Source: Candidatus Nitrospira inopinata (GTDB lineage Bacteria > Nitrospirota > Nitrospiria > Nitrospirales > Nitrospiraceae). Taken from it: a DNA stretch of 32,000 bases. Made by a program: the position numbers and the translations under genes. Below the pieces are notes generated by a model. The model made no database searches and was not told the origin of the DNA. It was given only the letters and a program-made list of their open reading frames with translations. This document shows positions 4,231-17,444 of this stretch, piece by piece (position 1 is the stretch's first letter; every line of letters begins with the position of its first letter). The stretch is taken from assembly GCF_001458695.1 (NCBI RefSeq), contig NZ_LN885086.1, positions 630,001-662,000 of the forward strand, written 5' to 3'.

Positions 4231-5916
4231 ATGCTGCTTCTTCGGACATGCCGGACGCCACGAAGCACGTGCTTCGTGGCGCGCTCCGTCGTTTTCGCCA
4301 CCTTCCTCCTTGCCACTTTTGCCATCGCCCCGTCCCAGGCGTCGGCGGCACAGGATGACCCGAGTGAGGCCATCAGAAGGTTGGAGCGACAACATGAAAC
4401 GATTAGAGGGGAACTGGTCTCTCCGGGGGAGGAACAGGAACAGGAGCATGACTCGCCCGATCAACAGAAGAGCCCTCGCGAGAAGGCGCTCGACCGAATC
4501 AAACGGCTCGAGGAACGCACGAAAGAGCGAGTCGGCCCCCCTCCTGAAGAGCCGGCCGTCGAACAACACCTTCCGACCGTTCCACGGGAACGAACTCAGT
4601 TTCTTCTGAATCTGTTCGGCGCCATCGCCCGCATCTACGACGAGATCCTCGTCCAGACGGGAAGGGTGGGACAGTATTACGATGATCTCTTGGATACAGC
4701 CGTCGCCGCCCCACGCCTGTTGCACCGTCTGTTGAACCAGCCGGAAGGATTTCGGTTCGGCGGCGAGTATCGGATCCGCTATGAAACGTTGGAGGGGCGA
4801 TGGCGAAGGGGCGAAGCAGGCAGCGACCAACAGGTGGCCCAACGCACCAGATTCTACTTCAGCATCAAGGACATCGCAGACCCGTTGCGAGCGGTGCTGG
4901 AATTTCAGGACTCCAGAACCTGGTTGACCGACCAGGGGTCGTTCGTCAACAACACCCATGTCAATCATACCGACATCCAGCAGTTGCACGTGGATCTGGT
5001 CTCCTCGAATTTCTTTGGTTCCGGTCTCTATACCGAGCTCAACGTCGGACGGCTCAACATGGACCTGGGACGACGCCGATGGGTGGCGAGAAACAGCTTC
5101 CGCAACACGACCAATGCGTTTGACGGAATCAGTTGGCTGCTCGGGAAAACCGAGGTCTGGAGCCTTCGCGCCTTCGTCGTCGCGCCGGTCGGCCGATTCT
5201 TGCGCCGCCTCGACGAGCCGGATACGGAACGCCGGCTTTGGGGCCTCTACTACGAATCCCACCACCTCTCCCGGATGAGGACGGACCTCTACTACTTCGG
5301 CCACAGGGATCGCGGCCCCTTCCGAGATTTCGACATGGTGGGAACGAGGATTCGGAAACGACCGGCAGCGGGAACGTTCCACTACGAAATCGAATCGGCC
5401 TATCAGTTCGGCGACGTGAGCCGGCAGGGGCGATTCCAGCACTTTCAGCACGCCGAGGGAGGATTCACGTTCGACGCACCCTGGATTCCTCAGATCGTGC
5501 TCCAATTCGATTACGCCAGTCGGGGGTTCGATTCGCTCTACGGGGCCCGCGTCTTCGAGTTCGCCCCCACCGGCATCTTCGGACCGGTGGTCCGTACCAA
5601 CCTCCTTTCCCCAGGGCTGCGCCTCCTGGCCAACCCCACCGACAAACTGTCGCTGTACCTCCAACAACGGGCCTTGTGGCTGGCGGACGGCCGGAGTCCT
5701 TGGGCCGGCAGCGGTCGTCACGACCCCACCGGCGCAGCCGGCACATTTGTGGGCCATACTTCTGACCTCCGCGCCGGCTACAGAGTCACCGACAATCTGT
5801 TTCTTCAGGTGGGATTCGTCCACTTCGCCTTTGGAGGCGTCCCCAAACGGACGCCCGACTCCACCGGAGATCGACGCGCCATCTATGCCTACACGTCGAT
5901 AGACGTGCTTTTCTGA
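4231..5916 (+). CDS. Outer-membrane beta-barrel porin, alginate-export family, tandem paralog
   Basis: Roughly half of the barrel residues are identical by eye to ORF 2420..4204 (GGEYRIRYE, DIQQLHVDL, VGRLNMDLGRRRWVARNSFRNTTNAFDG, PTGIFGP). Signal peptide ends SQASA|AQDD; C-terminal IDVLF. An alternative in-frame GTG start lies at 4276. Confidence 0.8.
   Translation: MLLLRTCRTPRSTCFVARSVVFATFLLATFAIAPSQASAAQDDPSEAIRRLERQHETIRGELVSPGEEQEQEHDSPDQQKSPREKALDRIKRLEERTKERVGPPPEEPAVEQHLPTVPRERTQFLLNLFGAIARIYDEILVQTGRVGQYYDDLLDTAVAAPRLLHRLLNQPEGFRFGGEYRIRYETLEGRWRRGEAGSDQQVAQRTRFYFSIKDIADPLRAVLEFQDSRTWLTDQGSFVNNTHVNHTDIQQLHVDLVSSNFFGSGLYTELNVGRLNMDLGRRRWVARNSFRNTTNAFDGISWLLGKTEVWSLRAFVVAPVGRFLRRLDEPDTERRLWGLYYESHHLSRMRTDLYYFGHRDRGPFRDFDMVGTRIRKRPAAGTFHYEIESAYQFGDVSRQGRFQHFQHAEGGFTFDAPWIPQIVLQFDYASRGFDSLYGARVFEFAPTGIFGPVVRTNLLSPGLRLLANPTDKLSLYLQQRALWLADGRSPWAGSGRHDPTGAAGTFVGHTSDLRAGYRVTDNLFLQVGFVHFAFGGVPKRTPDSTGDRRAIYAYTSIDVLF
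4256..4281. repeat. Perfect 26-nt palindrome CGCCACGAAGCAC|GTGCTTCGTGGCG
   Basis: All 13 base pairs checked by hand. It lies 52 nt after the porin-1 stop and covers the alternative GTG start (4276) of porin 2. Centre is CACGTG. Confidence 0.9.
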
Positions 5917-12973: not shown

Positions 12974-13943
12974 GTGAGCCCCTCAACCTGCGACGGTGCA
13001 TGATCCGGATTCTTCCCATCCGCAACCAAGCTCGTAGAGCAGATCATCCCGTCATGCGCCGGCGCTGCCTGCACCAAACCGGTCCCGTTCTCCCCAACGG
13101 CTTCGGCGCTCAGCATGATGACCGCAATTTCCTGTGTGATCTCTTCTTGCCGGAGCACATGGTACTTCCGCGTCAACCCCTCGGTCTCCTTCTCCAATCG
13201 TTGGAGCGCCTGGTCCATATGTTGAAACCGACTGCGATTTTCCGCCATCAGCGAGGTATAGAACATCTCGTGCAACACCGAGAAGAGATAGTGATCGAGC
13301 AATCGGGTCGCCACCTCGACCGGCGGCATGGTGAGGAGAGGGGGATGAGCATACTGGGTCCGAGGCCGGCCGAATTCACGAAAGGGGCGCCGGACGATGA
13401 CGGCTCGACCATTGTCGGCGCTTCTGTCGCCACTCCTATCGTTGCCCCCGTCACCGCTCCCGTGAGACAGCACGGTCACGTCCAGTCGAGTCCCAGCGGG
13501 GCGATTCCGCTGTAGCTCGCGCAGCGCTTCCACCACTTGAACCAAGACCGACGGCACCTCCTCCGTCACACTGGGGCCCGATAACGCCACATCCGGTTTG
13601 AGGCCGCCGATTTTCATGGCCAACTTATGGCCGACCGTTACGACCAACGGGAGCGGATCGCCCTTCCCCGTCATTTCCCTCGCCCGACACCGATCGAATT
13701 CGGCGAGCAAGGATTCATTGAAGTCCCCGCAGAATCCCCGTTCTGATCCGATCAAGAGAAAGACCGGACAGGCTCCCTCCATCGATGGGAGCAAGGCCGG
13801 ATAGCAATGGAAGAAATCCGCGGCGGCTTCTTCGATGCCGCCGACAACCCGCTGTTGCGCCGAGAGGAAGCGGCTCAGTTTATGGACCTCCATCAGCGCC
13901 AGGTTTTTCATGGCATTGAGGATTCCCTTGATGTCGCTCAACG
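12970..13943 (-). pseudogene. atpG: N-ATPase gamma subunit, 3' part (codon 13 onward), separated from its start by the transposon
   Basis: Gamma-like sequence (SDIKGILNAMKNLALMEV..., C-terminal QEEITQEIAVIMLSAEA). No ATG or GTG start remains; the track start at 13941 is a TTG that is Leu14 of the reconstructed protein. An in-frame stop lies at 13990-13992 inside the transposon. Confidence 0.85.
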
Positions 13944-13951
13944 CGTGAATC
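13944..13951. repeat. Target-site duplication, left copy (CGTGAATC)
   Basis: Identical 8-mer directly abutting the outer edge of each terminal inverted repeat (13944-13951 and 15921-15928). Confidence 0.9.
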
Positions 13952-13969
13952 GGCAGTGCATCAGTTTGA
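13952..13969. repeat. Left terminal inverted repeat (IRL)
   Basis: GGCAGTGCATCAGTTTGA matches the reverse complement of 15903-15920 at 16 of 18 positions. It starts GG(C/T)(A)GTG, similar to IS1 ends. Confidence 0.85.
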
Positions 13970-14017
13970 ATTATTCCCCGATTGAAAACCTATCAAGCCT
14001 GTGGCATGCTTAGCGGT

Positions 14018-14254
14018 ATGCAGCGCCCTAAGCGGCCACGCGACCCCAACCAACTCGGCAAGCTCATTGTAGACCTGAGTGTCGGCGAAGCCGATGACTC
14101 TAAGAACCTGCCAGATGAGAGCGGGAAAGATCCGGCGGCTGTTGCCCTTGGTAAGAAAGGCGGTGCGGCACGGGCAAAGAAACTGTCCTCAAAAGAGAAA
14201 TCCTCCATTGCGAGAAAAGCGGCGAAAGCACGCTGGAAATCTCGCGTAAAATAG
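14018..14254 (+). CDS. Small lysine/arginine-rich protein (about 78 aa), passenger gene
   Basis: MQRPKRPRDPNQLGKLIVDL...DPAAVALGKKGGAARAKKLSSKEKSSIARKAAKARW. This resembles a widespread family of small basic hypothetical proteins. The start is uncertain (ATG 14006 or 14018; the track start 13982 is TTG). Confidence 0.55.
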   Translation: MQRPKRPRDPNQLGKLIVDLSVGEADDSKNLPDESGKDPAAVALGKKGGAARAKKLSSKEKSSIARKAAKARWKSRVK

Positions 14255-14356
14255 CCGTACCTTGGTTATCCACAGCCATCCTGAAAAGATCATCACCCAC
14301 ACCGCACTAGCACCACATTTCGCATTGACAGAAAAACATTAAGAGGGTAAAAGGGT

Positions 14357-14383
14357 CTCCAGGTCATAATACACCACCTGGAG
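14357..14383 (+). promoter_or_regulatory. 8-bp perfect inverted repeat CTCCAGGT-N11-ACCTGGAG overlapping a CATAAT box and the SD of the downstream ORF
   Basis: Arms at 14357-14364 and 14376-14383. The loop contains CATAAT (14365-14370). The right arm overlaps the GGAGGGG SD for the ATG at 14392. A TTGACA lies at 14325-14330. Confidence 0.4.
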
Positions 14384-14391
14384 GGGTGCCA

Positions 14392-14748
14392 ATGCCTGAG
14401 CCAGCACAAGATCTTGAGGTTTTACAAGCTCGCCTTCTTGCGGTCGAGAAAGAACTGGAGAAACTTCGGTTAGAACTTGCTTGTTCGCGCAGTGGAAACT
14501 CATGGACACATAACTCTAAGGTTGTCCCAATCGGTTATTTGCGTCCCTCCCAAGCCATTATCGCAAGCCTGCGCGAATTTGATAGACCTGTTGGAGTAGG
14601 AGTGCTTCGCCAACGGTTAGAGTCGAAGGGGTATCCGATGGAGAAATTCGGACCCACGAAAAATTATTTCTATACTCTGATCTGTCGATTAGCTGAATCA
14701 GGGAAGATCGCCCGATTAGAAGGGGATGAAGTTATGCTGGCAGGATAA
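14392..14748 (+). CDS. Hypothetical protein, N-terminal coiled-coil plus possible winged-helix-like C-terminal half, passenger gene
   Basis: ATG 14392 lies 5 nt after GGAGGGG. LEVLQARLLAVEKELEKLRLEL is heptad-like. A strong hairpin follows. No recognisable family. Confidence 0.55.
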   Translation: MPEPAQDLEVLQARLLAVEKELEKLRLELACSRSGNSWTHNSKVVPIGYLRPSQAIIASLREFDRPVGVGVLRQRLESKGYPMEKFGPTKNYFYTLICRLAESGKIARLEGDEVMLAG

Positions 14749-14750
14749 GC

Positions 14751-14796
14751 AAATGCCCCGTCAGATCCATTCGCAAGAGAACCTGACGGGGCATTT
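14751..14796 (+). terminator. 14-bp perfect stem hairpin (AAATGCCCCGTCAG-N18-CTGACGGGGCATTT)
   Basis: Starts 3 nt after the stop at 14748. GC-rich core, with the stem ending in TTT. There is no long U-tract, so the terminator call is tentative. Confidence 0.5.
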
Positions 14797-14815
14797 GTAA
14801 GAACGATCAACCGAA

Positions 14816-14911
14816 GAGGGGGTGTACCGAATGGTAAGGTGACCTGATTCGCAAACAGGTCGCAGATGCTAGCACATCTGCTTGCGGGTTCGAGCCCCGC
14901 CCCCCTCTCCA
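14816..14911 (+). tRNA. tRNA-like gene, class-II architecture (long variable arm), encoded CCA, atypical anticodon loop (UUCGCAA)
   Basis: Hand fold. Acceptor GAGGGGG/CCCCCTC (7 bp perfect). D arm TACC-GAATGGTAA-GGTG, with GG. Anticodon stem CCTGA/ACAGG with a terminal A-A mismatch and loop TTCGCAA. Variable arm is a 7-bp stem, GCAGATG/CATCTGC. T arm GCGGG-TTCGAGC-CCCGC. Discriminator T, then CCA. Confidence 0.6.
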
Positions 14912-15036
14912 ACCCTCTAGAAGGCAGGTTAAATATACCAACCCTCACGGCCCTGTCAACTCCGCTCAGTTACTTAGACATTCATTCCCATTACGGGGAT
15001 ATATGCAGGCCCATCATTATAACTGAACATTTATGC

Positions 15037-15065
15037 TTGACGATAAGCATAGACGGTAGTATAGT
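15037..15065 (+). promoter_or_regulatory. Sigma70-type promoter TTGACG-17 nt-TATAGT for the transposase, predicting a leaderless mRNA
   Basis: -35 at 15037-15042 and -10 at 15060-15065, with exact 17-nt spacing. The ATG at 15072 lies 7 nt after the -10 box. A TATGCTT/AAGCATA inverted repeat flanks the -35. Confidence 0.55.
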
Positions 15066-15071
15066 ATGGGC

Positions 15072-15911
15072 ATGAACAAATTGAATCATGCTAAGCGAGT
15101 CCAGATCATCAACTTGCTCGTTGAAGGCAACAGCATGCGGGCGACGGCGCGCATTGCAGATGTGGCGTTCAATACAGTTGCCAAACTGTTTATCGACACG
15201 GCGCGAATGTGCGCCGATTATCAGGATCGGACATTCCGCAAACTCACTTGCAAGAAATTGCAGCTGGACGAGATCTGGAGCTTCGTCTATGCCAAGCAAA
15301 AGAATGTTCCTGACGAGAAGCGCGGCCAAGCTGGAGATATCTGGACCTGGGTTGCGATTGATGCGGACAGTAAGCTTGTTCCTTCGTGGAGGATTGGAAG
15401 CAGGGACGCACGGACAGCCTGTGAGTTTGTCGATGATCTGGCAAGCCGTCTAGCCCATCGGGTGCAGATTACATCAGACGGATATAGGCCCTATCTGCAA
15501 GCCGTTGAAGGCGCGTTCGGAAGCAATGTTGATTTTGCCCAGCTTGTGAAGTTGTATGGCGATACGGTCGAGGGACAGAAACGGTACAGCCCACCTGTCT
15601 GCACTGGCGCGGTAAAGTCCGTCGTGATGGGCAACCCTGACGCCTGCTGCATCAGTACATCATATGTGGAACGGCAAAACCTCACGATGCGGATGAGCAT
15701 CCGACGCTTTACCAGGCTCACCAACGCCTTCTCAAAGAAGATTGAGAATCATGCGCTGTCAGTGGCCTTGCATTATATGCACTATAATTTCTGCCGGGTA
15801 CATAAGACGCTTCGGGTTACTCCGGCCATGGCCGCTGGTGTCTCAGATCATGTCTGGACGATTGATGAGATCGTGGCCCTTGTCGAACAAGCCGAGGCTC
15901 AGTCAAAATGA
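15072..15911 (+). CDS. IS1-family DDE transposase (single-ORF type)
   Basis: MNKLNHAKRVQIINLLVEGNS HTH region, then DEIWSFVYAKQKN, WTWVAIDADSKLVPSW, ITSDGYRPY, STSYVERQNLTMRMSIRRFTRLTNAFSKK and HYMHYNF. From memory these match proteins annotated as IS1 family transposase. The 3' end runs into the IRR. Confidence 0.88.
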   Translation: MNKLNHAKRVQIINLLVEGNSMRATARIADVAFNTVAKLFIDTARMCADYQDRTFRKLTCKKLQLDEIWSFVYAKQKNVPDEKRGQAGDIWTWVAIDADSKLVPSWRIGSRDARTACEFVDDLASRLAHRVQITSDGYRPYLQAVEGAFGSNVDFAQLVKLYGDTVEGQKRYSPPVCTGAVKSVVMGNPDACCISTSYVERQNLTMRMSIRRFTRLTNAFSKKIENHALSVALHYMHYNFCRVHKTLRVTPAMAAGVSDHVWTIDEIVALVEQAEAQSK

Positions 15912-15920
15912 TGCACTACC
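15903..15920. repeat. Right terminal inverted repeat (IRR)
   Basis: TCAAAATGATGCACTACC; see IRL. It overlaps the transposase stop codon (15909-15911). Confidence 0.85.
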
Positions 15921-15957
15921 CGTGAATCCGCCCGGAGAGTTCGTGGCGTTTGCTCAT
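15916..15957 (-). pseudogene. atpG: N-ATPase gamma subunit, 5' stub ([12 protein letters not shown] + G + stop)
   Basis: ATG 15957-15955 overlaps the atpA stop 15956-15954 (ATGA). The reading frame runs into the IRR and ends at a TAG (15918-15916). Confidence 0.8.
15921..15928. repeat. Target-site duplication, right copy (CGTGAATC)
   Basis: Identical to 13944-13951 and directly adjacent to the IRR. Confidence 0.9.
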
Positions 15958-17444
15958 GATTCGGCCTCTCGACCGATCCAGCTCTTGACGGCTTCTTCCC
16001 AGCGATCGGCCGAATCCTCAAGAGTCAGACCGCTTTCGCTCGCAGCAGTCATCAGTCGATCGAACACTCCTTTCACCTCAGGAATCGGCACGCGATCAAA
16101 GTGTCCACGGTTGAACGCCACCAACCAGGCCATGTGCGCCTCGATGGGGAGGGGAGCCAAGCGTGGCTGTTTCAAGATCTCGCGCAGAATGCGGCCTCGG
16201 TTGATCTTGGCTTCGATCGAGGCTTCAAGCTTGGCGCCGAACCGCGTAAACACCTCCAGTTCGAGAAACTGGAGATAGTCAAGCTTCATACGCCCCGCCT
16301 GCTCTTTGATGCGAGGATGCTGGCCCTTTCCACCGATCCGCGAGACGGATCGTGTGACGTCGATGGCGGGCAGGATCCCGCCGGCGAAGAGGTTCGCGTC
16401 CAGATAGACTTGGCCGTCGGTGATCGAGATCAGATTCGTCGGAATGTAGGACGCAATCTCGCCCTGCGCGGTCTCGACGATCGGCAACGCCGTCATGCTG
16501 CCGCCGCCGGAGGAGGCGGCCAGACAGGTCGACCGTTCCAGCAGGCGTGAATGGAGGTAAAAGATATCGGCCGGATAGGCCTCACGTCCCGGCGGGCGGC
16601 GCAGGAGGAGCGACAGCTCTCGGTAGGCCTGTGCGTGGGTGGTCAGGTCGTCGAAGACCACCAACGTATCTTTTCCCTGCCACATCCAAGCCTCAGCCAG
16701 GGCGCAGCCGGCGAACGGGGCCAGATACTTGAGACCAGGCAACGCCGTGGCGTCGGCGACGACGATCGTCGTGTGGGCCATCGCGCCATGGGCACGGAGC
16801 GTCTCGATGACCTGCACCGCCGTCGATCGTTTCTGGCCGATCAACACGTACACGCAGAGCACGTTTTTCCCCCGTTGATGGATCACCATGTCCAACGCGA
16901 GCGATGTTTTCCCCACGCCGTTGTCGCCGATGATGAGTTGCCGTTGCCCCTTCCCGATCGGAATCAACGTGTCCACCACTTTGTTGCCTGTATAGAGGGG
17001 CTTATGCACAAAATCCCGCGCGGTGATCGGCGGAGCGGGAGTGAAGAGGGGGCGACGCCCCATCGATTGGGGAATCGGTTGTCCGTCCAGCGGACGTCCA
17101 AGCGGATCGACCACTCGTCCGAGCCATGCGTCTCCAACAGGGATGCTGAGCGGCCGGCCGAGTCGATAGGCGGTGGTCTCCGAGGTCAGGTTGTCCGCCC
17201 GCTCCAATAAGATTGCGCCCACCAGTTGCCGTCCTAAGTGAAAGGTCAGTGCCAGACTCCCACCATCGAACACCAATAGTTCATCCATCGCGACGGAAGG
17301 AAGCCCATCCACCCAGACGATCCCATCCCCGACCGAGCGCACGACGCCCCGCTCCGCCACGCGCAAGGCGAATCGATAGTGCTCCAGCCAAGCGGCCTGC
17401 CGGGCGATCGGCGAAGCGGCTTCAGAGTACGGCGTCAACAGCAT
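15954..17444 (-). CDS. atpA: F1 ATPase alpha subunit (N-ATPase type)
   Basis: 496 aa. Walker A GDNGVGKT, plus [28 protein letters not shown] and ITDGQVYL. Confidence 0.93.

Follow-up and report, generated by a model that had tools for sequence, protein, structure and literature searches.

To our knowledge, few natural transfer RNAs (tRNAs) that break the codon table have been described, namely the allo-tRNAs, tRNAProX and the Ser/Leu CUG tRNAs of yeasts, and it is an open question in the field by what route such code-breaking tRNAs spread and how cells tolerate them. Here, we describe an irregular tRNA-like gene that is carried by an IS1-family insertion sequence (IS) in Candidatus Nitrospira inopinata. 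The gene lies in a stretch of 32,000 nucleotides (nt) of contig NZ_LN885086.1 (positions 630,001 to 662,000), referred to as the window; coordinates are those of the window unless a homologous locus, designated by an L number, is named. Among the described systems, the allo-tRNAs and "irregular tRNAs" of Acidobacteria and soil metagenomes (Mukai et al., Nucleic Acids Res 2017, PMC5389517) come close: in allo-tRNAs the 12 bp of the acceptor branch are divided 8/4 or 9/3, and these tRNAs insert Ser, Ala or Cys whatever the anticodon and are found near toxin-antitoxin and transposon genes (PMC5389517). The tRNAProX (tRNAProA/T/N) of Streptomyces and Kitasatospora are mistranslators with Ala, Thr or Asn anticodons that lack U33 and are toxic in E. 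coli (PMC10404621). A third point of reference is provided by the CreT RNAs, which consist of a Shine-Dalgarno sequence, a mini open reading frame (mini-ORF) and stem-loops and which sequester a tRNA (PMC8501985). The gene described here resembles allo-tRNAs and tRNAProX in concept and belongs to neither. We tentatively suggest, stopping short of calling it probable, that it encodes a genuine, tightly repressed dual-identity mistranslating tRNA that rides as IS1 cargo.

14816 to 14911, + strand: irregular class-II tRNA-like gene with the anticodon CGC at 14850-14852, U73 and an encoded CCA (ARAGORN, fold, Rfam, covariation)

ARAGORN places a tRNA-Ala(cgc) at exactly 14816-14911 (+), and this is its sole tRNA call in the 32-kb window. 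The 96-nt sequence, GAGGGGGUGUACCGAAUGGUAAGGUGACCUGAUUCGCAAACAGGUCGCAGAUGCUAGCACAUCUGCUUGCGGGUUCGAGCCCCGCCCCCCUCUCCA, has an acceptor stem of 7 bp (GAGGGGG/CCCCCUC), a D stem of 4 bp that includes one G.U pair, G18G19 in the D loop, the T arm GCGGG-UUCGAGC-CCCGC, which gives an acceptor/T split of 7/5, and a variable-arm stem of 7 bp (GCAGAUG/CAUCUGC). The 7-bp acceptor and 5-bp T stems, the T loop of the form UUCRANN, G18G19 and the 3' CCA all fit a cloverleaf. The anticodon arm can be drawn in two ways: ARAGORN gives a 5-bp stem with an A.A loop-closing pair (A31.A39) and the loop UUCGCAA, and the alternative is a 6-bp stem, GACCUG/CAGGUC, with the 9-nt loop AUUCGCAAA. The minimum-free-energy fold (-44.9 kcal/mol, z = -3.93) is a cloverleaf with the latter arm, and one of 200 dinucleotide shuffles folds as well. 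An earlier reading of this DNA from its letters alone (the sequence-only reading) had proposed the cloverleaf with its GG-containing D loop, U discriminator and CCA, the long variable arm of a class-II fold and both versions of the anticodon arm, and all of these are present in the sequence, the ARAGORN call and the fold. The connector between acceptor and D stems is UGU (3 nt) in the window copy versus UG in its closest relatives (in the register of L010, L118 and L124). The window copy is the most deviant member of its family, and its decoding efficiency may be low or altered.

The family comprises six distinct long-arm sequences: the window copy, L010 (with near-identical copies), L107, L109, L124 and L118. 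Homologous DNA was fetched around clusters of proteins homologous to the product of orfB, the gene preceding the tRNA-like gene, with the exception of L118, which came from a DNA-pattern scan of JGI metagenomes; 13 of the 14 matches in that scan were ordinary Cys, Gly, Lys, Thr or Ser tRNAs, which leaves L118 as the single family member among them. The six sequences come from Nitrospira and from soil or freshwater bacteria. When the acceptor, D, variable and T stems of the six sequences were counted by a tool on a model-guided alignment, 99.2% of the cells were standard pairs and 16 of 22 pairs showed double compensatory changes, with all seven pairs of the variable arm covarying. None of 500 shuffles reaches the observed values, and sliding the partners by 1-3 columns leaves ~50% paired. 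Double changes in five of the seven acceptor pairs and three of the five T-stem pairs support the 7/5 register. The anticodon stem was left out of this count and parsed by hand, the model-guided alignment being unreliable there; alignments made with MAFFT were discarded, their anticodon and variable arms being structurally wrong. In the five hand-parsed sequences this stem is fully paired (ACCUG/CAGGU, AGGGG/CCCCU, GGCGA/UCGCC and GGUAG/CUACC), and L124, which was read later, has GGGGG/CCCCC. Six G.U cells fit the + strand only, and because of this we take the + strand RNA to be the structured product; a structured RNA from the minus strand was rejected, since these six pairs would become C.A mismatches and the T loop, GG and CCA can be read on the + strand only. 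In total, the covariation indicates that the family fold is far beyond chance and selectively maintained. The comparison with other copies that the sequence-only reading had proposed therefore came out in its favor, the tRNA being intact in these copies with compensatory changes in its stems.

What the members share extends beyond the stems. U73-CCA, G35 and A37 are invariant in all six, while acceptor stems differ at up to five of seven pairs. The anticodon loop has 7 nt in five members, and the loops UUCGCAA, CUCGCAA (L124), GUCGCAG, CCUGCAA (twice) and UCCGUAA yield the consensus N-Y-Y-G-Y-A-R. The anticodons are CGC in three, UGC in two and CGU in one (L107), i.e. of Ala or Thr type and never those of Leu, Ser, Tyr or Sec, in line with the earlier observation of an Ala-type anticodon on a class-II body. 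The D arm has a stem of 3-4 bp and a loop of 8-9 nt. The tRNA pattern has no match in IMG/VR, and in a plasmid collection similarity is confined to the transposase, with no tRNA or orfB. A phage or viral origin was rejected: a 16-mer spanning the antisense -10 element described below has 98 matches in IMG/VR, and among the 80 listed none matches a tRNA model, which points to chance.

Covariance models give a divided answer. The window copy reaches no Rfam gathering score, whether the whole window or the 126 nt of 14800-14925 alone are searched. Its best match is tRNA-Sec (RF01852; 33.2 bits versus a gathering score of 47, E = 4.8e-5) in an alignment that uses the 6-bp anticodon stem and two inserted loop bases; in a low-threshold search, the general tRNA model (RF00005, gathering threshold 29 bits) was out-scored by tRNA-Sec, and other low-scoring matches were microRNA or small nucleolar RNA noise on the neighboring hairpin. 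RF00005 is passed by L107 (49.3 bits), L124 (46.4), L118 (43.5) and L010 (43.4) and not by L109. Because four relatives pass this model, we regard the window copy as belonging to a real family and not as a chance fold. A sub-threshold covariance score, which the sequence-only reading had named as a ground for refutation, is literally what the window copy gives; however, L010, L118, L124 and L107 pass at 43-49 bits.

Assignments to known classes were tried and rejected. G3:U70 is the AlaRS determinant, and the discriminator is expected to be G73 in Ser and Sec tRNAs and A73 in Leu and Tyr tRNAs. A tRNA-Ala lacks support in that neither G3:U70 nor A73 is present in any of the six members, the 3-70 pair being G-C in the window copy and C-G, G-C or U-A in its relatives. 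A tRNA-Sec is opposed by 33.2 bits against 47, a 7/5 rather than 8/5 split, CGC rather than UCA and U73 rather than G73. Of the tRNA-Ser traits, the long variable arm is present (a stem of 7 bp in the window copy and 5-8 bp in relatives) and G73 is absent, U73 being found in six of six members. ARAGORN, which also searches for transfer-messenger RNA (tmRNA), reports none and Rfam gives no tmRNA match. The likeness to allo-tRNAs raised by the sequence-only reading does not amount to membership: the long variable arm, a possible 6-bp anticodon stem and the location in an IS1-family element are shared, but the defining 8/4 or 9/3 split is replaced by a clean 7/5 with all 12 acceptor-branch pairs standard in the six sequences. 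Finally, a shifted cysteine identity (GCA at 35-37 together with U73), an idea prompted by a shifted-anticodon observation for HisRS (PMC5389517), was considered; L107 has GUA at these positions, and no stem register gives GCA at 34-36.

Compared with allo-tRNAs in general, the family is alike in its long variable arm, the lengthened anticodon helix of the window copy, sub-threshold tRNA-Sec matches, an anticodon unrelated to the body, transposon- or toxin-antitoxin-like neighbors and extra acceptor/D nucleotides in some members, and also in that both are suspected missense or nonsense suppressors or non-translational RNAs. It differs in the covariation-supported 7/5 split of its six members, in an ordinary D arm where allo-tRNAs have a long stem with a tetraloop, and in its invariant U73, defined IS1-family carrier, conserved antisense promoter and Nitrospira, soil and freshwater hosts. 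With tRNAProX it shares the use of one body for Ala- and Thr-type anticodons differing at position 36, the lack of identity elements for the amino acid of the anticodon, the tolerance of a non-U33 and the naming by software after the anticodon. In contrast, tRNAProX are class-I tRNAs with the C1:G72 proline element and A34 and are encoded in a chromosomal operon with ProRSx, whereas the present family is class II with C34 or U34 and resides in an insertion sequence without a synthetase gene. The likeness to tRNA-Sec (RF01852) is limited to the long variable arm and, in the window copy, the 6-bp anticodon stem; besides the split, anticodon and discriminator, the short D stem sets the two apart.

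The tRNA-like gene does not stand alone; it is preceded by orfB and a hairpin and is faced by a convergent promoter:

14325 to 14353, + strand: putative, weak promoter of orfB, TTGACA, 17 nt, TAAAAG (found by eye)
14392 to 14748, + strand: orfB, 118 amino acids (aa); long N-terminal helix, CxxC, C-terminal winged helix (AlphaFold 2 (AF2), Foldseek)
14750 to 14797, - strand: perfect hairpin of 15 bp with an 18-nt loop (inverted repeat); predicted antisense terminator and stabilizer of the 3' end of orfB mRNA
14932 to 14959, - strand: convergent sigma-70-type promoter, TTGACA, 16 nt, TGg-TATATT (11 of 12 consensus positions plus the TG of an extended -10)

The hairpin ends 18 nt 5' of the tRNA start. 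Its stem is kept in L010 through compensatory changes, and its U-rich tract lies on the minus-strand side in the window copy as it does in most relatives (L118 UUUUUAUUU, L107 UUUCGUUUUAU, L037 UUUUUAUU); a consensus terminator scan of the window did not call the hairpin at 14750-14797. The convergent promoter points into the 3' end of the tRNA. Matching promoters are found in L010, L118 and L124, with the -10 ending 18-23 nt from the tRNA 3' end, and weaker versions in L107, L026 and L099; moreover, the conserved blocks in the alignment of the window with L010 coincide with the convergent -35 and extended -10. These signals predict a cis-antisense RNA of ~130-175 nt that would run from the convergent promoter through the whole tRNA to the hairpin, and promoter, transcript and terminator would naturally be read as a small antisense RNA gene. 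In the searchable, and incomplete, literature we found no report that combines an irregular tRNA and a cis-antisense promoter in one unit. In L118 the hairpin, tRNA and convergent promoter follow an ImmA/IrrE-like gene instead of orfB, and because the unit sits behind a different gene there, we suggest that the three travel together.

The product of orfB matches a hypothetical protein from Candidatus Nitrospira inopinata at 100% identity and has only 11 homologue clusters among 5.8 billion proteins. In six of the ten clusters with downstream DNA read, orfB is followed by the hairpin and the tRNA; in the eleventh, the contig ends just past the gene. The protein matches no Pfam and no PADLOC family, and PADLOC defence models have no match for orfA (the first gene of the element), orfB or the transposase. 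Its AF2 model (predicted local distance difference test score, pLDDT, 79.5) has as best Foldseek matches the winged-helix domains of Fur/Zur, histone H1 and Zalpha at a weak E of ~0.02, and most simply the model suggests a small dimeric nucleic-acid-binding regulator. The putative orfB promoter was not flagged by the consensus scan, the last base of its -10 not being T; L026 has a similar TTGACA-18-TACAAA 5' of orfB. The tRNA itself probably derives from transcripts that read through from orfB. The idea that the genes in front of cargo tRNAs encode one protein family was rejected: in hhalign comparisons of the orfB profile with the proteins of L086 (HARE-HTH) and L099 no significant match was obtained, and only the coiled-coil plus winged-helix architecture is common to the three. 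The convergent promoter, the terminator hairpin and the winged-helix gene were absent from the sequence-only reading and change what the locus is likely to do.

With CreT and the type I/VIII toxin-antitoxin RNAs, this arrangement has in common a structured small RNA that would act on translation, lies beside a repressor-like gene and faces a convergent promoter, with a hairpin as shared terminator; toxicity and the antisense transcript are here predicted from sequence signals. It differs from CreT in having no CRISPR repeat or CreA-like guide and in presenting a complete tRNA cloverleaf instead of a mini-ORF.

Two observations concern the RNAs on either strand. First, the 8-mer AUUCGCAA occurs both at 14769-14776, in the 18-nt loop of the hairpin, and at 14847-14854, in the anticodon loop of the tRNA, so that the terminator loop of the predicted antisense RNA would be complementary to the anticodon loop and a kissing-loop contact is possible; in relatives, only GCAA is common to the two loops, and the 8-mer may be due to chance or lineage-specific. 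Second, 3' of the tRNA in L107 (958-1085) and L109 (754-880) there are three hairpins with compensatory changes, i.e. GUACG...CGUAC, GGCUGGA...UAGCCAG followed by ACCNCCACCA, and GUACUUGA...UCAAGUAC; the last of these may be a bidirectional terminator, and an orfA-like gene lies on the opposite strand.

The carrier of this unit is a 1969-bp IS1-family element of the cargo-carrying type ("transporter IS"), and the sequence-only reading was right to call the gene transposon-borne. The remaining parts of the element are:

13944 to 13951, no strand: left 8-bp target-site duplication CGTGAATC, a perfect direct repeat that abuts the left inverted repeat
13952 to 13984, no strand: left terminal inverted repeat (GGCAGTGCATCAGTTTGA...), 33 nt, 73% complementary, outer ~20 nt nearly identical
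14006 to 14254, + strand: orfA, 82 aa (KRPRDPNQL...DPAAVALGKKGG...ARW; ORF listing, tblastn in related loci)
15037 to 15065, + strand: transposase promoter TTGACG, 17 nt, TATAGT, with the palindrome ATGCTTGACGATAAGCAT overlapping the -35 (promoter scan)
15072 to 15911, + strand: IS1-family DDE transposase, 279 aa from the ATG at 15072 (ORF listed from 15066; Pfam DDE_Tnp_IS1)
15888 to 15920, no strand: right terminal inverted repeat (...AAAATGATGCACTACC), partner of the left 33-nt imperfect repeat
15921 to 15928, no strand: right 8-bp target-site duplication CGTGAATC, a direct repeat

From left to right the element contains orfA, orfB, the 15-bp hairpin, the tRNA-like gene, ~150 nt of non-coding DNA and the transposase gene, and it is intact: the inverted repeats and the target duplication are in place, the three ORFs run without interruption and the promoters are conserved. 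IS1-family elements, as described in ISfinder, have GGnnnTG ends, generate target duplications of 8-9 bp and include "transporter IS" with passenger genes. The carrier shows each of the IS1-family hallmarks looked for: the transposase matches PF03400 (DDE_Tnp_IS1) with 33.1 bits versus a cut-off of 24.1, the duplication has 8 bp, and the ends read GGCAGTG... (left) and GGTAGTG... (right), the GGnnnTG start of which we take to be the IS1-family end motif. Gene callers place the transposase start at the equivalent of 15072, and plasmid relatives are annotated as "IS1 family transposase". In its DDE_Tnp_IS1 domain, GGnnnTG ends, 8-bp duplication and extra genes to the left of the transposase, the element is like the single-ORF ISMhu11-like group of IS1 and "transporter IS". 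No report of tRNA genes as IS1-family passengers was found in the searchable literature, which leaves out most subscription-journal papers. The element is identical and at the same site in every N. inopinata assembly retrieved, and its sister in L026 (81-3031, 2951 bp) has equivalent ends and a different 8-bp duplication, CAAGAATA. The G+C content is 51-52% in 14001-16000 versus ~60% in the surroundings.

Combining these data, we suggest the following scenario for a mistranslating tRNA. The six homologues point to a + strand cloverleaf that would be competent to form the L shape (G18G19, a UUCGAxx T loop, the 7/5 split, U73 and CCA). This RNA (i) would be transcribed by read-through from orfB and released by RNase P and 3' trimming; (ii) would be charged by a synthetase that is blind to the anticodon, for which SerRS, acting via the long arm, is the only obvious route, AlaRS being excluded by the lack of G3:U70; and (iii) would read, with its CGC anticodon, the very common codon GCG, which accounts for 40 per 1000 codons in the 12 host ORFs of the window, and insert a residue other than Ala, while the UGC and CGU of relatives would read Ala and Thr codons. 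Because of the long variable arm, serine is our default guess for the attached residue, though U73 is off the tRNA-Ser consensus. The tRNA level would be lowered by the cis-antisense RNA, for which the signals are present from 14959-14932 to the hairpin at 14797-14750, and the winged-helix protein encoded by orfB probably also represses the tRNA. In total, the cassette would be a small, potentially harmful and tightly repressed module akin to toxin-antitoxin-like mobile cargo. We favor a decoding tRNA because the elbow nucleotides, CCA, discriminator and 7-nt loop suit RNase P, a synthetase, EF-Tu and the ribosome. The covariation, the Rfam scores of four relatives, the intact element, the conserved unit of hairpin, tRNA and convergent promoter and the mismatched cargo tRNAs of related elements also speak for this scenario, and tRNAProX (PMC10404621) and allo-tRNAs (PMC5389517) provide published precedents.

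Several findings weigh against this scenario. The window copy lies below all Rfam gathering scores and has an aberrant anticodon arm, with a 9-nt loop or an A.A closing pair; the family is rare, with six distinct sequences and one new member from the JGI scan. U33 is near-universal in tRNAs, and C33 is found in three relatives; U73 fits no known class-II identity set. No sense sigma-70 promoter was found between hairpin and tRNA. Efficient misreading of a codon at 4% usage would be very costly. Lastly, for the cargo tRNAs of related elements, described next, the mistranslator claim comes from inspection of anticodon versus body.

Relatives of the transposase number at least 590 among GTDB species representatives and span many phyla; we examined the best 80 loci (L027-L106). 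Between orfA and the transposase gene, these elements have a variable cargo slot with ImmA/IrrE-like, XRE/MqsA-like and HARE-HTH genes among its contents. A tRNA gene occupies the slot in seven of the 80 loci (six distinct elements), with a body that mismatches the anticodon in each case, and at least 70 of the 80 loci are without any tRNA. The tRNA genes of the subfamily are:

L086, 3831-3917: Leu-type class-II body (A73) with the ochre anticodon UUA
L082, 2742-2830, - strand: Ser-type class-II body (G73) with the ochre anticodon UUA
L099, 3625-3718: Ser-type body (G73) with the anticodon UAG
L037, 3851-3925: class-I body with the Ser anticodon ACU
L072/L075, 3822-3898: class-I body with the Ser anticodon ACU
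L046, 664-742, - strand: class-I body with the Ser anticodon GCU
L052, 2676-2750: tRNA gene, listed with the mismatched tRNAs of the subfamily
L104, 3130-3203: Trp(CCA) tRNA with a C.C mismatch

These cargo tRNAs score 50-67 bits with the Rfam tRNA model versus 64-75 bits for ordinary host tRNAs outside the elements at the same loci. Anticodon-stem mismatches are present in several cargo tRNAs, including those of L026, L037, L072 and L104; the Leu- and Ser-type class-II tRNAs with UUA have canonical anticodon arms. In L026, the tRNA slot holds a 76-nt class-I tRNA-Thr(cgt) of 53.5 bits, with two C.A mismatches in its anticodon stem. In L037 and L099, a hairpin with its U tract on the minus strand again precedes the tRNA, and a convergent promoter-like site is present as well. 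In the window element, L010, L026, L037, L072, L086 and L099, the tRNA lies between the cargo and the transposase promoter, and in L082 and L046 its orientation is reversed. From these sequences, decoding-competent recoding tRNAs appear to be recurrent cargo of the IS1 subfamily. A bolder proposal, to which we attach little confidence, is that the subfamily is a vehicle for "genetic-code-bending" tRNAs, each a mis-decoding toxic RNA with a cis-antisense antidote and sometimes a winged-helix repressor; if so, these would form a new toxin-antitoxin-like class, bringing mobile, regulated mistranslation and stop-codon suppression to environmental bacteria.

The irregular tRNA family is here tied to a defined transposable vehicle and to compact control signals, and, since Candidatus Nitrospira inopinata is a complete ammonia oxidizer that can be cultivated, its expression, charging and decoding are open to direct tests. 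Should the wider pattern hold, suppressor and mistranslating tRNAs would be moving between phyla on insertion sequences, a route so far overlooked, and an annotation as "tRNA-Ala" that is based on the anticodon would mislabel such tRNAs.

Some contents of related loci are described here in their own right. L026 contains orfA, orfB, the hairpin, tRNA-Thr(cgt), a two-gene pair and then the transposase gene; the second product of the pair has a zinc ribbon and HTH_3 and is antitoxin-like, of the MqsA type. Because L026 carries both, the slot can hold a tRNA unit beside a toxin-antitoxin-like pair. At the most distant orfB loci, a strong Shine-Dalgarno sequence, a mini-ORF of 3-4 codons and one or two covarying stem-loops stand in place of the tRNA (L023, ~630-720; L021, ~4465-4560; L108, ~1885-1965; L020, ~4365-4420). 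The mini-ORFs read ATG ACG ACG AAC TAG, ATG ACG ACG TGA and ATG ATA GTC TAA, and ACG is the codon for the CGU anticodon of the L026 and L107 tRNAs.

As an alternative to the mistranslating tRNA, the RNA might not decode at all. It would then be a tRNA-like regulatory or toxic RNA that forms one half of a sense/antisense pair and jams translation or titrates a tRNA-binding factor, in a type-VIII-like module in which the cis-antisense RNA would be the neutralizing partner and the orfB protein an additional repressor; we regard this as the main rival, if a rather doubtful one. The conservation of the convergent promoter and of the minus-strand orientation of the hairpin, the recurrence of this layout around the unrelated irregular cargo tRNAs of L037 and L099, and the movement of the unit as a block, seen in L118 behind the ImmA/IrrE-like gene, all agree with such a pair, and so does the toxin-antitoxin-like cargo (MqsA-like, ImmA/IrrE-like) elsewhere in the IS subfamily. 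Several cargo tRNAs combine damaged anticodon stems with perfect acceptor, T and D arms; most allo-tRNA(UAU) variants are inactive in translation and two are lethal (PMC5389517); and the Shine-Dalgarno sequence, AUG-ACG-ACG-stop and stem-loops of the most distant orfB loci are arranged as in the CreT design (PMC8501985), in favor of the idea that the site behind orfB accommodates RNAs that target translation. However, the link to these mini-ORFs is an analogy of position and not homology, the promoter and the terminator are consensus matches only, and the retention of U73-CCA, of a 7-nt loop with G35 and A37 and of the elbow nucleotides exceeds the needs of a decoy. Should the RNA have no part in translation, it would be a candidate for a mobile RNA/antisense-RNA module of a new kind.

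It is unlikely, in our judgment, that the window copy is simply a decaying passenger, inactive in N. inopinata, with an insertion between acceptor and D stems and a rearranged anticodon arm. To be sure, it fails RF00005, as only L109 does besides, it has the one extra acceptor/D nucleotide (UGU versus UG in the closest relatives), and its anticodon loop has 9 nt or is closed by an A.A mismatch where five relatives have 7-nt loops; being a single sequence for the lineage, identical in all assemblies, it also gives no means of assessing purifying selection within the lineage. Yet none of the 27-28 stem pairs is broken, U73-CCA, the T loop and G18G19 show no change, the surrounding element is intact in its repeats, duplication, three ORFs and promoters, and the deviations leave a stable 6-bp anticodon helix, which is a trait of tRNA-Sec-like tRNAs.

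Phage-borne tRNAs act as helper or counter-measure tRNAs, and the tRNA, charged correctly or without harm, could in principle top up the decoding of GCG and ACG or resist or out-titrate a tRNA-targeting toxin such as an anticodon nuclease or a mini-ORF RNA that sequesters tRNAs. The restriction of the family to the anticodons CGC, UGC and CGU, which read GCG, GCA and ACG, the ordinary-looking class-I tRNA-Thr(CGU) that L026 carries in the slot at 53.5 bits, and the AUG-ACG-ACG mini-ORFs of distant orfB loci, which would draw on tRNA(CGU), are in line with such a role, as is the finding that over-supply of the cognate tRNA suppresses CreT toxicity (PMC8501985). We nevertheless consider it very unlikely: G3:U70 and A73 are missing from the CGC and UGC members, which AlaRS should therefore not charge, a long variable arm and U73 are foreign to tRNA-Ala and tRNA-Thr, GCG and ACG are abundant and not limiting in the host, and an antisense promoter against a beneficial tRNA is hard to rationalize. 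Quite improbable, finally, is a pure processing or insulation element, in which RNase P and 3' processing would cut read-through transcripts, define the 3' end of orfB mRNA at the hairpin and shield the transposase gene from outside transcription: tRNA-like punctuation of transcripts is an established principle, and the absent dedicated sense promoter, the hairpin 18 nt 5' of the tRNA and the tRNA position between cargo and transposase promoter in seven elements (the window element, L010, L026, L037, L072, L086 and L099) would suit it, but the conserved discriminator, encoded CCA and constrained anticodon loop and the reversed cargo tRNAs of L082 and L046 are left unexplained, and at least 70 of 80 subfamily loci manage without a tRNA.

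The other gene of the element, orfA, was rejected as a tRNA-specific partner: tblastn finds it in ~60 of the 80 related IS loci, with or without a tRNA and whatever else they carry. It matches no Pfam family and probably encodes an uncharacterized accessory or regulatory protein of the element. Its ~80-aa products have the motifs KRPRDPNQLAK and NPAAVALGRKGG(L)KGGKARA..L..E.R.EIA.KAA.ARW. The transposase-promoter block is kept in L026, L027 and L028, and so is the palindrome ATGCTTGACGATAAGCAT over the -35, which has an operator-like appearance. The transposase -10 (TATAGT) ends at 15065 and the conserved ATG is at 15072, and because of this spacing the transposase mRNA is probably leaderless.

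In L076, a Leu-type class-II tRNA (A73) with the proline anticodon UGG is found at 5625-5712 (57.7 bits); it lies ~800 nt outside the IS copy, not obviously within the element, and is convergent with a gene for an NYN/LabA-like RNase-domain protein.

According to Pfam, the genes surrounding the element in the window are those of an N-type ATP synthase operon, acetate kinase and phosphoketolase. The insertion point is in the N-ATPase operon, within the 37 nt that separate the stop codon of atpA from the start codon of atpG (TTG at 13941, minus strand), and the duplicated target stops 2 nt short of the atpG start codon (window 13942-13951 and 15921-15956). In this position, the insertion should disconnect atpG from the transcription and translation signals of the operon, and the downstream genes for acetate kinase and phosphoketolase may be affected likewise.

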